Source: a virus (lineage: Duplodnaviria > Caudoviricetes). From it: 57,242 bases of DNA. Shown here piece by piece: positions 1 to 57,242 of the stretch. How positions within the stretch are numbered: the first letter of the stretch is position 1; the number at the start of each line of letters is the position of its first letter. The notes under the pieces are model-generated. The model searched no databases, had not been told where the DNA came from, and was given only the letters and a program-made list of their open reading frames with translations. The stretch lies in the IMG/VR virus record IMGVR_UViG_3300008966_000004, positions 1-57,242 of that record; one strand, 5' to 3'. The translations under genes and the position numbers were made by a program.

Positions 1-3
1 TTT

Positions 4-360
4 TTACCACCTGTTTTTTGGTTTGTCTTTTTCTACTATCGCAATAATTCTTAATATTTCTTTGCTCTCGCTATCAGTAAAAATACCAATATAACGATCA
101 ATTAATTCAAATCTAGTCTCAGACTTGCATCTTTCTATTTCCAAAGAATACCCCCTTAACTCATCATCTATATTAATAAAGGTGAAATCGTTTAAATCAT
201 AAAAAGACCTGCAAGCAAGTGTAGTCGCCATTCTATTTACTGTCCTGCTGTAAATGTCGGTAAGTAAATATGCTTGTTTCTCAGTGAGGTTTTTATCTGA
301 TTTTATAATATTTTCAATTATTGCTTTGCCAGTAATTGGAACTATAAGTAATTTGCTCAT
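4..360 (-). CDS. hypothetical protein
   Basis: ORF track 4..387; GGAG RBS precedes the ATG at 360 (MSKLL...), so that start is preferred. Confidence 0.6.
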   Translation of the reverse strand: MSKLLIVPITGKAIIENIIKSDKNLTEKQAYLLTDIYSRTVNRMATTLACRSFYDLNDFTFINIDDELRGYSLEIERCKSETRFELIDRYIGIFTDSESKEILRIIAIVEKDKPKNRW

Positions 361-580
361 ATTTTTACTCCTCCTTATTTTTAACAAAGGTTTTCTTCTG
401 CTGTTCTAGCCGCAGACAAATAATAATTGATGATAGCCTTTAGTTGTATAATTATTGACTTCTCGGCTTGGTTTGTATCTACATAATTTTCTAAACACTC
501 GGCATAATGCTCGGCATTCTTTAATGCGACTTCTATAATCTGCTCTTTAAAATCTTGGTCTGAATCGGCATTGTATTTTT

Positions 581-1113
581 CCCGTCCTACGCTAAAAAAT
601 TGTTCAAAGCTATAAAACCGCAGAAATAAGCCATTTTATTTAAAAATCTTGAAATTTAACGTAGGACAAAGTCCGTCCTGCGCTATCAAACGGCTAACTT
701 CTGCCCTTTTTAGTGATTTATAATGAAAAAATTTTTTAGCGTAGGATTAGCGTAGGATAACCACTAGTCCTACGTTAAAAGGTGGCGGAGTTCTGCGGTT
801 CATAAGAAATAAAATTTTAACGTAGGACAGAAAACACGAGAGGACGCCTAAAAAAACAGAGTAAATAAAAAAAGAAAATAAAAAAAATAACTAAAAAATC
901 TCTTTTCTTAGGTAAAAAATTTAAGTATTTCTCTATATTCAGTCCTACGTTACAACTTTTTTAGCTCGCAAACGGCGGAGTTCTGCGGTGTTTTAACGTA
1001 GGATTTGATCCGTCCTACGTTAGTCCTACGCTACAACAAAAAAGACTAGAGAATGTCGCATAAACGGCAAGAACAAGCCATCTTTTAACGTAGGATGGTT
1101 TTAGTCCTGCGCA
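581..1113. repeat. putative replication origin: 13 copies of GTCCT(A/G)CG(C/T)T-like iterons in both orientations around an A-rich core
   Basis: Copies at ~584,658,675,738,749,767,819,942,995,1012,1023,1087,1104; 738-780 and 991-1032 form an imperfect inverted repeat flanking A-tracts at 850-900; GGCGGAGTTCTGCGGT repeated at 784 and 974; directly upstream of the primase-helicase. Confidence 0.75.
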
Positions 1114-1327
1114 AAAAAAGATAAACAAGTAAAAAAAGACATTACATTCCGTGGTCGGGATTCTTACCGACAAAGATAATTCACATTGCCATAAAAGCTT
1201 TACTACACAAGAGTTAACGCTGGGTATTTTAGGATAAGATAAAAAGCAGTGCTTGAAGATTACACTTGAAAAAGCGGAGAGATATGGTTATCGTAGAGGA
1301 AGTTAAAAATTAGGGAAATAAGGCCTT

Positions 1328-1406
1328 AAAAAGCAAAAAACCTGCTAACTTTTTTCGGAGCTTGCAGGTTCTTTGTTTTATTCATGCTAGAACAAACATA
1401 AAATAT
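1328..1406 (-). ncRNA. candidate counter-transcribed antisense RNA over the primase leader
   Basis: Minus-strand TTGACT(1441-1436)-17 bp-TATCAT(1418-1413) promoter, followed by hairpin AACCTGC..GCAGGTT (1370-1339) and a U-tract. Confidence 0.5.
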
Positions 1407-1412
1407 AATCGA

Positions 1413-56024: not shown

Positions 56025-56053
56025 ATTATAATGTTTATTTCCTTTAAAAACAA
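56025..56053 (-). promoter_or_regulatory. putative promoter for the methylase-terminase operon
   Basis: TTGTTT(56053-48)-17 bp-TATAAT(56030-25). Confidence 0.45.
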
Positions 56054-56089
56054 GGTCTATGTTTTACTCTAAAACCCGAATAAAGGTAT

Positions 56090-56452
56090 CTAGCTAATAA
56101 TCAACCAATCGGTAGCTTCTATATCTTCTATAGATAAATTATCTAAATAAATAAAATCAGAATTTATAATTGCTGTGTGGTTTTCTCTTACAGCTTTTCC
56201 CCCCAGTTTAATGAATTTTAAAGCTTCAAGAAAACTAACTTTTTGACGAGATTGTTTATTTTGTTCTATATATTCTTCCCATTCATCTTCAAATAAATCA
56301 TTATAACAAGAAATAATAAGTTTATATTCCATATAATTTTCATCATATAATCCATATTCTAAAATCGAACAAATAAAGTGATTATTTTTCCAATCACGTT
56401 TTCTTATTTTTTTGTTTTTTAATGTTAACTCTAAAGCTTCTATTAAATTCAT
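56090..56452 (-). CDS. tandem double DUF2829/Tad2-like protein
   Basis: MNLIEALE....KKIRKRDW...DLFEDEWE and SFLEALK.IK.GGKAVRE...LSIEDIEATDW; GGAGG RBS at 56452. Confidence 0.7.
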   Translation of the reverse strand: MNLIEALELTLKNKKIRKRDWKNNHFICSILEYGLYDENYMEYKLIISCYNDLFEDEWEEYIEQNKQSRQKVSFLEALKFIKLGGKAVRENHTAIINSDFIYLDNLSIEDIEATDWLIIS

Positions 56453-56465
56453 ATTTCCTCCTTTA

Positions 56466-56942
56466 TTAATTGATTTGACCATGCAGCACAAAATCCAGTA
56501 AAGCAAGGCTATCTGCTTCGTTATCATCAATAGGCGTAAAGCCTTTCTTCTTGATAGCTTCAATAACAAGCTCCTTAGAGCTGTTCCCTTTACCTGTAAT
56601 ATGTCGTTTGATTGTCCCAACTGGGATGCCTTGGTATGCTATCTGGTGATGCTCACACCAAGCTGTTAAATGGGCAAGAAAGCCGCCGTATTTATGGGCA
56701 GCATCTACTCCCTTATGTGCTCTTACTTCCTCAAAATAAATAGCTTCAACATCACCAAGCGTTGCTTTCAAATCAGTAAGCCATCGTTTAAAACGCAGGT
56801 AAGTCATACCTCCGCCCTCAAATCGCTGCTGCTTGAAGCTTACAGTTCCAGAAGTTATACCCCCCTGTTTTTCTCTAATAGCCCAACCGGTATTAGTGCC
56901 AAGGTCTAAAGCTATAATTGTTGAGTGATCAGAAATATTCAT
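56466..56942 (-). CDS. RuvC-like Holliday junction resolvase (phage WO type)
   Basis: ALDLGT.TGWA, FEGGGM.YLRF, YFEEVR.H.GVDAAH.YGGF, GTIK..TGKGN..K, DDNEAD.LALL. Confidence 0.9.
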   Translation of the reverse strand: MNISDHSTIIALDLGTNTGWAIREKQGGITSGTVSFKQQRFEGGGMTYLRFKRWLTDLKATLGDVEAIYFEEVRAHKGVDAAHKYGGFLAHLTAWCEHHQIAYQGIPVGTIKRHITGKGNSSKELVIEAIKKKGFTPIDDNEADSLALLDFVLHGQIN

Positions 56943-56964
56943 AATCTATTTTCCTAAAAATTAT

Positions 56965-57242
56965 CTAGGAATACTTATTTAACACAGCTACAAGTTTATT
57001 TATAGTTTCTTTTATACTCTCATTCTTAATGCCCTTAAAATTCTTGGAATATTCCAATGCTAAACGCTGTCTTGATTCTTCCTCTGGCGTTAATACATAT
57101 TTTGTTATCCCTTCATAAAAATAGCTTGGAGGTTTACCAAATATGCCAGCAAGTAGAATAAGCCTACCTATTGAAAGTCTATTACTGCCATTCTCATATT
57201 TAGCAAACTGCTGATGAGTAACGCCTATTTTTTGAGCTATCG
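56965..57242 (-). CDS. XRE-family HTH regulator (Rickettsiales Tr1-like), 5' end outside window
   Basis: IAQKIGVTHQQFAKYENGSNRLSIGRL...SYFYEG...QRLALEYSKNF..IKN; runs off the window edge. Confidence 0.85.
   Translation of the reverse strand, partial: IAQKIGVTHQQFAKYENGSNRLSIGRLILLAGIFGKPPSYFYEGITKYVLTPEEESRQRLALEYSKNFKGIKNESIKETINKLVAVLNKYS

Follow-up and report, generated by a model that had tools for sequence, protein, structure and literature searches.

Apart from phage WO of Wolbachia, tailed phages of the order Rickettsiales are, to our knowledge, almost unknown, and few tools exist for the genetics of these bacteria. Here we describe a myophage represented by the IMG/VR record IMGVR_UViG_3300008966_000004 (Caudoviricetes), which was analysed as a whole, over all its 57,242 bases; this stretch, with a GC content of 0.328, is called the window below. 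A preliminary description, made from the sequence alone, had presented it as a near-complete phage of intracellular alphaproteobacteria, carrying ankyrin, patatin and moron cargo and possibly maintained as a phage-plasmid. Our present analysis leads to a reading that we consider probable: the window is an essentially complete myophage with a circular map of about 57.3 kb, belonging to a low-GC, non-integrating lineage hosted by Rickettsiaceae, intracellular symbionts of freshwater protists.

Results

Gene content and circular map

Seventy-five open reading frames (ORFs) of the window were scanned against Pfam and PHROGs (Table 1), and the full head, tail, baseplate, replication and lysis sets listed in the preliminary description were all recovered. 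The packaging and head set comprises small and large terminase subunits (TerS and TerL), portal protein PF06381 (DUF1073), MuF, a DUF2213 protease/scaffold, cement, capsid PF09950 (DUF2184), DUF4054 and neck proteins. The tail set comprises terminator, DUF3383 sheath (phrog_205, E 4e-67), tube, assembly chaperone, tape measure, Dit-like, plug and hub proteins, and baseplate proteins J and W. The features by which a Caudoviricetes myophage is recognized, namely terminase, portal, HK97-type capsid module, sheath, tube and baseplate, are thereby all represented by family matches. The genome contains all the modules required for assembling a myophage and for lysing a Gram-negative cell. Genes for replication, recombination and lysis form a plus-strand block (1362-17513). 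The minus-strand block (17510-57240) holds, in this order, baseplate, hub, plug, Dit-like protein, tape measure, chaperone, tube, sheath, neck, capsid, cement, DUF2213, MuF, a fibre-rich stretch, portal, TerL, TerS, methylase, RuvC-like resolvase and an XRE-family regulator.

Both termini lie, as noted before, in minus-strand ORFs (4-387 and the 5'-open 56965-57240), and the earlier suggestion that they could join in a circle is borne out by independent contigs. A capsid gene 96-99% identical to that of the window is present on five IMG/VR contigs, the longest of which (G001) has 52,544 bases. Over about 57% of the window, G001 can be aligned at 80% identity or more (mean 93%), and the two are collinear once the window is circularised. 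Window positions 49205-57240 correspond to G001 2696-12171; at the ends, 56959-57240 map to G001 11891-12171 and 1-578 to G001 12267-12844, at 99% identity. The 95 bases of G001 between the mapped ends encode the first ~31 residues of a 123-aa XRE protein, and window base 1 falls within the XRE start codon. The break of G001 itself, in the fibre region, is spanned by the window. The junction was also checked in contigs of four of the metagenome runs mentioned below: Logan contigs of two more runs cross it (X2, 787 letters; X4, 1,788 letters), and a contig of run X1 stops at precisely window base 1. This is where the X1 contigs break; one of them joins position 12931 of locus L023 back to 12267 via 22 other letters (region L023:12119-12931), and several loose ends at the junction resemble other XRE variants. 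Mixed strains probably explain the assembly break.

On these alignments, the window is an essentially complete phage genome whose ends join, with only ~95 bases missing, inside the XRE gene. The CheckV completeness of 59% given for the record, which is classed there as linear, is an underestimate, because the ends join with so little missing. Such underestimation can occur for lineages without close references.

The circular element of Candidatus Trichorickettsia mobilis

By sequence comparison, the nearest named relative of the window phage is a circular extrachromosomal element in the assembly of Candidatus (Ca.) Trichorickettsia mobilis, a Rickettsia-family symbiont of Paramecium. This contig (G359:C2) has 57,766 bases, a GC content of 0.347 and a 99-base terminal direct repeat, which marks it as a closed circle. 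It matches 30 of the 75 window ORFs in the same order, at 26-65% identity (Table 1). Its portal protein is letter-for-letter that of WPY01515.1 (WP_323738908.1), labelled at NCBI "(plasmid) [Candidatus Trichorickettsia mobilis]". The assembly contains contigs of over a megabase, and its sheath gene is found on G359:C2 only.

The element resembles the window in size, low GC, circular form and the order ParB-methylase, TerL, portal, fib673, patatin, fib744, MuF, head, tail and baseplate. An ankyrin gene is likewise present on it, and an integrase was not found. It differs in a distinct replication and maintenance half, without the DUF3987-primase and without an XRE gene at the same place. That other half (L049, L047) encodes a ParA-type ATPase, HU, two ProQ/FinO proteins, Fic, an ankyrin protein, an IrrE-type protease, GapR and P63C, and near ParA also a fused methylase-specificity protein of a type I restriction-modification system. 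Viral capsid-like structures inside Ca. Trichorickettsia mobilis are mentioned in the account of Vannini 2014 (PMC3914857).

Relatives among bacterial genomes and metagenomes

Relatives of the window proteins were counted in a family sample, the GTDB family of genome G006, and in an even alphaproteobacterial class sample. G006 is a 1.1-Mb metagenome-assembled genome (MAG) titled Rickettsia typhi, in which an exact-peptide-word search found one degraded copy of the insertion sequence (IS) transposase described below. The family is Rickettsiaceae, because the XRE match in G137 (G137:C2:115387-115746) coincides with the match to a Ca. Megaera polyxenophila plasmid (NZ_CP104167.1, 115387-115752).

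Full-length XRE homologues of 40-48% identity (E≤1e-10) occur in 113 of the 130 scored genomes of the family. At E≤1e-24 the match is present in 97/130 family genomes, as counted from the table, versus 0/400 other genomes of the class sample. The four best plasmid matches in PLSDB are plasmids of Ca. Megaira (40-43% over nearly full length), and all those beyond the top four are alphaproteobacterial, at 40% or less. The only phages with an XRE match are from Caulobacter, Brevundimonas, Agrobacterium and hosts of that kind. Portal relatives with 43-46% identity (E≤5e-113) were found in 4 of 131 family genomes and in none of the 401 class-sample genomes at that level, where the best match has 29% identity (E 1e-31). 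The capsid gave two weak matches among 400 genomes of an order sample, and one of them led to G359:C2. A search of genome contigs for the portal by exact peptide words gave no match, and as this method also missed G359:C2, the blank says little.

The best matches of the single-stranded DNA-binding protein (SSB) and of XRE had been put forward earlier as a check on the host, and both agree with it: beside the Megaira plasmids for XRE, the named relatives of SSB are alphaproteobacterial MAGs and Hyphomicrobium (56-60%). GapR is present in two relatives. Together with the scant similarity to WO described below, the XRE and portal counts support, indirectly as regards the host, the proposal of a distinct lineage in intracellular alphaproteobacteria. 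The tRNA-Cys is 82% identical to a chromosomal copy of G137 (Megaira) and 78% to that of G359 (Trichorickettsia); this comparison has no control and so is not used as evidence.

In at least 20 metagenome runs (17 studies), 46-88% of the sampled head-tail words are present. They come from lake water, freshwater, sediment, wastewater, sludge and fish gut, habitats which suit protist symbionts without being specific to them; such symbionts are expected in all of these habitats (PMC13134042).

Replication module and lifestyle genes

The motif TTARCGTAGGA has 13 matches in the whole window versus 1.67 expected, a number that 0/100 shuffles reached, and 11 of the 13 copies lie within 510 bases. G001 has no copies of it; the corresponding position there is taken up by repeats of another family (L023:12800-15200). 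The replication initiator shows the same pattern of difference: between window and G001 its primase half is nearly identical, and its DUF3987 N-terminal half (1362-2850) has ~35-40% identity. Because iterons and DUF3987 half both differ and the primase half does not, origin and origin-reading domain appear to have been swapped as a unit, in the manner of plasmid and lambdoid replicons. Against plasmids, the primase gives partial matches of 25-31% only, mostly alphaproteobacterial.

No tyrosine integrase (PF00589), serine recombinase (PF00239) or ParA-type ATPase (PF01656) was detected in a six-frame search of the window, a search which detected these families in 12-14 of 14 reference genomes. 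The sole ParB domain in the Pfam scan of the 75 ORFs is fused to a methylase, so the absence of integrase and of a ParA/ParB partition pair, stated in the preliminary description, holds. The same scan found no repressor-protease pair, and the upstream regions of five intermediate relatives (5-9 kb of each) contain no integrase or ParA. Phage structural genes on a non-integrated circular replicon, one of the traits of a phage-plasmid, are seen in the circular map of the window and in closed G359:C2, whose sheath gene has no chromosomal copy. The iteron array and the initiator-primase with exchangeable N-terminal domain may form a replication module of plasmid type. Of the earlier suggestion of a phage-plasmid, the circularity stands; the window lacks a partition gene, so the phage-plasmid state itself is proposed from the ParA-bearing circular relative. 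The IS insertion, the variable non-essential genes, the host-type regulator and the ParA-bearing relative suggest a resident, non-integrating element.

Weak matches to Tad2-like (Thoeris anti-defence) proteins, just below the Pfam cut-off, lie at 25287-25490 and 56090-56620, with a similar one at L086:7295-7588. The best NCBIfam match of the XRE protein at L023:11896-12267 is the model of WO male-killing protein Wmk, with 38.9 bits against a cut-off of 300 and over the helix-turn-helix domain only.

The patatin-fibre cassette

A scan of IMG/VR by portal alignment gave 34 loci, 25 of which have portal identity of at least 37% and GC of 0.33-0.39. The order portal-fib673-patatin-fib744 is found in 19 of these 25, that is, in all 19 loci which extend far enough; the remaining six stop no more than 1,611 bases from the portal and so fall short of the cassette. 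Nine more distant loci (portal 30-36%) lack it. In the window clade a fibre-lipase cassette of 8-9 kb separates portal and MuF, whereas the two genes are 137-1413 bases apart in six of the nine distant loci. G445:C4 (portal 43%) is likewise without the cassette.

The patatin has its G-loop, GxSxG serine and DG aspartate invariant in 13/13 aligned sequences of the lineage, and the stop codon of fib673 overlaps the lipase start codon in most loci. Its best solved relatives are the CapV lipases of cyclic oligonucleotide-based antiphage signalling systems (CBASS; E 4e-32). It also matches the PADLOC "Effector Phospholipase" models (E 1e-25 to 1e-33) and, with 72-90 bits and below the 200-bit cut-off, the NCBIfam model CBASS_lipase NF041079. 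CapV has a similar length (~350 aa) and the same patatin fold motifs; it sits in a defence operon, in contrast to the lineage patatin, which sits in a phage fibre operon. No CD-NTase cyclase family was found among the 75 window ORFs (Pfam, E≤0.001), and the neighbours of the patatin are fibre genes. By gene order and motif conservation, the patatin of this lineage is a conserved CapV-like gene of the fibre cluster, not moron cargo. The preliminary description is thereby corrected on this point; the ankyrin gene which it named is real and conserved in G001.

The structure model of fib673 is poor (predicted local distance difference test, pLDDT, 55.8). Against PDB it gave no Foldseek match at E≤0.001, with only weak Ig-like beta-sandwich rows, and the sequence profile gave no PDB match; neighbours in the Atlas are collagen or fibre-like only. 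A predicted complex of the fib673 C-terminal domain with the patatin scored 0.22, against a mark of 0.32. The N-terminus of fib744 is conserved and reads MGLFVTDFIRPVSL, and its C-terminus is variable.

In the window copy the cassette is damaged. Three deletions are seen against the relatives L066 and L072, whose flanking DNA has 98.8-99.8% identity with that of the window: missing from the window are 165 bases at 49204/49205, ~213 bases net at 48593-48611, and ~203 bases at 46130/46131. They damage fib673, the patatin and the next gene. The deletion at 49204/49205 takes away the last part of fib673 and the first part of the patatin, so that the GGGTKG loop is left directly behind a stop codon and the last ~48 conserved residues of fib673 are replaced by out-of-frame sequence; the 166-168 bases missing there are present in G001, G002 and G004. 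The three deletions may be real or an assembly artefact. The possibility that TGA is a sense codon at the patatin start was rejected, because the stretch is the fib673 C-terminus read out of frame.

Relation to known phages

Compared with 50,697 GenBank phage records, TerL reaches at best 36% identity (Nitratiruptor phages and a spring metagenome phage), the portal 31% (Vibrio phages), the capsid 21-25% (Aeromonas and phiEcoM-GJ1-like phages) and the ParB-domain methylase 41% (other phages). The RuvC-like resolvase is 61-63% identical to those of Ralstonia and Acidithiobacillus phages and 59% to those of ten Wolbachia WO records. The phages Pseudomonas E217, cyanophage Pam3, Vibrio XM1 and the Escherichia phiEcoM-GJ1 group agree with the window in the Pfam families of their portal, protease, cement, capsid, neck, terminator, sheath, plug and hub proteins, but differ from the window by the low identities just given for capsid, portal and TerL.

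WOVitA1 (66,810 bases) was compared over its first 50,000 bases, where only 2 of the 75 window ORFs have a match: RuvC (59%) and the ParB-domain methylase (31%). In that part, the structural genes and the patatin of the window have no BLAST match, in keeping with the earlier statement that the DUF1073/DUF2213/DUF2184/DUF3383 set is not the WO layout. WO shares with the window the local order of resolvase, 404-aa methylase and terminase, as well as an intracellular Rickettsiales host and, in the account of PMC9203015, ankyrin and patatin genes beside tail genes. It differs in its large serine recombinase for integration (88-1740 in WOVitA1; PF00239 is absent from the window in six frames), lambda-like head genes and P2-like tail genes. 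The same source reports WO to be without a canonical endolysin, which the window phage has, and describes WO-like prophages of aquatic symbionts that integrate and have no ankyrin and patatin. The window patatin stands among fibre genes, and the genome has a canonical lysis set as well. On these comparisons, the window phage is not a relative of WO. The earlier view that XRE, RuvC and the ParB-methylase all resemble Rickettsiales or WO genes holds for XRE, which is Rickettsiaceae-specific; RuvC is equally near to Ralstonia and Acidithiobacillus phages, and the methylase is nearest to other phages.

Like phage-plasmids of the P1, N15 and SSU5 types and those of Arsenophonus, the window is a circular, non-integrated tailed-phage genome with a putative iteron-like origin and its own initiator, but it has no partition system. 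Plasmids of Arsenophonus and Criblamydia in PLSDB have the same portal family, at only 26-31% identity. MAnkyphage was reported from a Cryptomonas cell together with Megaira polyxenophila (George et al. 2023, Curr Biol, as cited in PMC10925606) and so, like the lineage described here in our reading, is associated with a Rickettsiaceae symbiont of a freshwater protist. No Megaira phage is among the phage-collection matches for TerL, capsid, XRE and portal, and the Megaira assembly G137, from the host of MAnkyphage, gave no portal or sheath match. The name MAnkyphage refers to ankyrin. Full-text literature searches gave no description of this lineage for Megaira phages or for Trichorickettsia phages or plasmids, and no paper on phage-plasmids of Rickettsiaceae; among the few papers found for Rickettsiales are ones on Sinorhizobium prophages and Wolbachia plasmids. 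MAnkyphage, beside which our lineage is set by description only, is the main risk to its novelty.

Insertion sequence and accessory genes

The lysis cassette of the window is interrupted by an IS1595-family element, whose transposase scores 216 bits with NF033547 (cut-off 75). Its inverted repeats sit exactly at the break in similarity to G001, from which the element is absent; the corresponding site of G001 is occupied by two other genes, for an outer-membrane beta-barrel protein and a coiled-coil protein. Target-site duplication is not seen in the flanks of the element. The transposase has some match in 107/400 order-sample genomes (best 59%) and at best 40% in plasmids. It was tried as a tracer of the host and names none, its best relatives (86-89%) being in metagenome contigs only.

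Other accessory genes are scattered over the lineage. The 433-aa ORF at 5581-6882 is shared with G001 as a conserved gene and matches nothing in Pfam, PHROGs, PADLOC, NCBIfam or Atlas. Non-structural genes lie inside the tail module (24440-30205), including SSB between hub and plug; hub and baseplate genes adjoin on G359:C2. An intermediate relative (portal 51%) carries a reverse transcriptase gene upstream of the terminase (L074:3903-5261), which could belong to a diversity-generating or retron-type system. A 59-kb relative has a gene of the sodium:solute symporter family upstream of the packaging genes (L077:2271-3719).

Table 1. Features of the window, in order of position; the last column gives amino acid identity (%) of counterparts on the Trichorickettsia element G359:C2
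Feature	Position	Strand	Basis and remarks	Identity (%)
Whole phage genome, circular map ~57.3 kb	1-57242		G001 collinearity and X2/X4 junction contigs; ~95 bases missing between 57242 and 1	
Iteron-like array, probable origin or operator	585-1095		11 copies of TTARCGTAGGA, both strands, where 974 bases separate the divergent gene blocks	
Replication initiator, DUF3987 helicase-like N-terminal domain fused to CHC2 zinc-finger/Toprim primase	1362-3956	+	Pfam	
C5 cytosine DNA methyltransferase	3934-4977	+	PF00145, E 7e-104	
Small ankyrin-repeat protein, 158 aa	7245-7721	+	Ank_2/Ank_4; region ~90% to G001	
YqaJ/RecE-like exonuclease	8560-9537	+	Pfam/PHROGs	
RecT	11377-12228	+	Pfam/PHROGs; small ORFs without assigned function between exonuclease and RecT	48.5
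tRNA-Cys (GCA)	12272-12346	+	ARAGORN	
SF2 (ResIII/DEAD) helicase	12617-14335	+	Pfam/PHROGs	
Holin-like protein, one transmembrane segment	14504-14707	+	Hydrophobic segment	
Lysozyme-family endolysin	14704-15087	+	PF00959, E 8e-35	46
IS1595-family element, 26-nt terminal inverted repeats	15304-17094	+	Transposase 15377-16279 and 180-aa membrane ORF; inside lysis cassette	
Spanin-like pair, first member	17099-17338	+	N-terminal transmembrane segment; sequence features, no family match	
Spanin-like pair, overlapping lipoprotein	17268-17513	+	Lipobox LILSGC; sequence features, no family match	
Baseplate genes	18213-24199	-	Pfam/PHROGs; J-like 20110-21543, W-like 21547-21915, PF18352 protein 23300-24199, others	31-44 (baseplate protein 44)
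Variable small-gene block within tail module	24440-28222	-	HNH-AP2 endonuclease 24440-25072, pentapeptide-repeat protein 26243-26578, ORFs without assigned function; mostly unaligned to G001	
Hub	28607-29533	-	Pfam/PHROGs	41
SSB, interposed among tail genes	29831-30205	-	Pfam/PHROGs	
Plug	30208-30582	-	Pfam/PHROGs	
Dit-like protein	30813-31568	-	Pfam/PHROGs	
Tape measure	31573-33267	-	Pfam/PHROGs	
Tail chaperone	33443-33850	-	Pfam/PHROGs	
Tube	33850-34278	-	Pfam/PHROGs	42
Sheath, DUF3383	34297-35379	-	Pfam/PHROGs	38
Neck/head region	35398-41691	-	Terminator, neck proteins, DUF4054, 359-aa ORF without assigned function, and the genes listed singly	
Major capsid protein, PF09950	38202-39179	-	Pfam/PHROGs	26
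Cement	39194-39718	-	Pfam/PHROGs	
DUF2213 protease/scaffold	39730-40872	-	Pfam/PHROGs	40
MuF	40876-41691	-	Pfam/PHROGs	42
Hypervariable fibre-like genes	41701-46206	-	Including 42193-43941 with S74 chaperone domain, and 44029-45453; region varies among G001, G002, G004 and G005	
Fibre-like fib744	46215-48380	-	True start ATG 48380, not listed TTG 48449	49
CapV-like patatin phospholipase, broken	48385-49204	-	Pfam; no start codon before GGGTKG loop; ~71 codons missing internally	60
Fibre fib673	49020-51083	-	Coiled-coil and collagen-like stalk, conserved beta-rich C-terminal domain	39
Portal	51173-52642	-	Pfam/PHROGs	45
TerL	52785-54044	-	Pfam/PHROGs; Terminase_3 type	40
TerS	54072-54509	-	Pfam/PHROGs	
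ParB-domain N6/N4 DNA methylase	54502-55716	-	Pfam/PHROGs	65
RuvC-like Holliday junction resolvase	56466-56942	-	phrog_159	
XRE-family regulator, Rickettsiaceae type	56965-57240	-	HTH_3; first ~31 codons in the missing 95 bases	

Discussion

The genome described here may be understood as follows. Replication would start from the iteron origin, recognised by the variable N-terminal domain of the phage's own helicase-primase, and headful packaging by the terminase would give rise to the circular map. The phage would persist in its host without integration, most likely as a low-copy phage-plasmid like its ParA-bearing relative, though it has no partition gene of its own. Late in infection, phages of this lineage would express a CapV-like patatin phospholipase, translationally coupled to a fibre gene. 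Since a separate set of holin, endolysin and spanin is present, the target of the lipase would be other than the bacterial envelope: most plausibly it would attack eukaryotic membranes around the host, or ride on the virion.

That the host belongs to Rickettsiaceae is, in our judgement, quite probable. The alternative is another low-GC freshwater bacterium, free-living or an intracellular alphaproteobacterium of another kind, the contigs having been binned or assembled together with Rickettsiaceae by composition and co-occurrence. Several points weigh on that side. The phage is widespread under varied aquatic labels, the control samples for the host call consisted of Alphaproteobacteria only, and no att site, host flank or spacer match links phage and host physically. 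The other three family contigs with a portal match (G445:C4, G446:C68 and G467:C51) are short, hold phage genes only and could have been placed by composition binning, and G445:C4 (L056) bears the NCBI label "Janthinobacterium lividum". The accessory half of G359:C2 has no near-identical DNA in the rest of its assembly, the only match being the HU gene (68-78%). The IS transposase does not exceed 59% in the family (1/108 at E≤1e-90) and order samples, its closer relatives being confined to metagenomes. Best matches in free-living hosts had been named beforehand as speaking against an intracellular host, and among cultured phages this is what TerL, capsid, portal and RuvC give, all of them distant, whereas XRE points to Rickettsiaceae. 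Such a different host nevertheless seems improbable to us. Against it stand the XRE and portal relatives, present in the family and missing from the class sample at the same level, and the Trichorickettsia assembly, with contigs of over a megabase and an element which its depositors named a plasmid. The GC of 0.33-0.35 also matches, and the habitats are ones in which protist symbionts are expected. As for the conflicting label, the G445 bin has 1.1 Mb and 35% GC and is placed in Rickettsiaceae, so that the label looks wrong.

The manner in which the phage persists is less certain than its host. Maintenance as a phage-plasmid has, in our estimate, close to an even chance. It competes with a strictly virulent life of the same phage, the circular map then being that of terminally redundant, permuted headful packaging and the Trichorickettsia element replicating lytic DNA. 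TerL is of the Terminase_3 type, which is typical of headful packagers, and the circular map fits a virulent headful packager as well; with the window lacking integrase, serine recombinase, the ParA/ParB pair and a repressor-protease pair, and with capsid-like particles filling Trichorickettsia cells in the account of PMC3914857, this is a serious rival, yet a rather unlikely one. Long residence in cells is suggested by the IS insertion and by cargo variation between near-identical genomes, such as the beta-barrel gene of G001, and the iteron-type origin with its exchanged specificity modules, the host-type regulator, and the ParA, HU, ProQ/FinO and IrrE-type protease genes of G359:C2 also argue against virulence. 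Integration in any form we consider highly improbable, and least of all do we expect an ordinary integrated prophage with an integration module that escaped detection or falls into the 95-base gap. It could appeal to the CheckV completeness of 59%, but in G001 this gap consists of XRE codons, the window and G001 break at different points and each covers the ends of the other, G359:C2 closes on itself, and no recombinase family was found in six frames.

If the preferred reading of a non-integrating phage of Rickettsiaceae is true, a widespread 57-kb lineage would serve as a natural vector and as a model of how genes move among protist symbionts, and it would give the capsid-like particles of Trichorickettsia a genetic identity. 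A bolder view, which we hold to be unlikely as a whole, is that these phages represent a second, independent solution to life in a cell inside a cell: Rickettsiaceae phage-plasmids that captured a CBASS-type phospholipase into their fibre operon, linked to the virion or released late so as to cross or break protist membranes, with the Trichorickettsia particles, known since 2014, being this very phage. The lipase, motif-conserved among fibre genes, is in any case a candidate for how a phage may cope with the eukaryotic membranes around its host, and the same question stands for WO.

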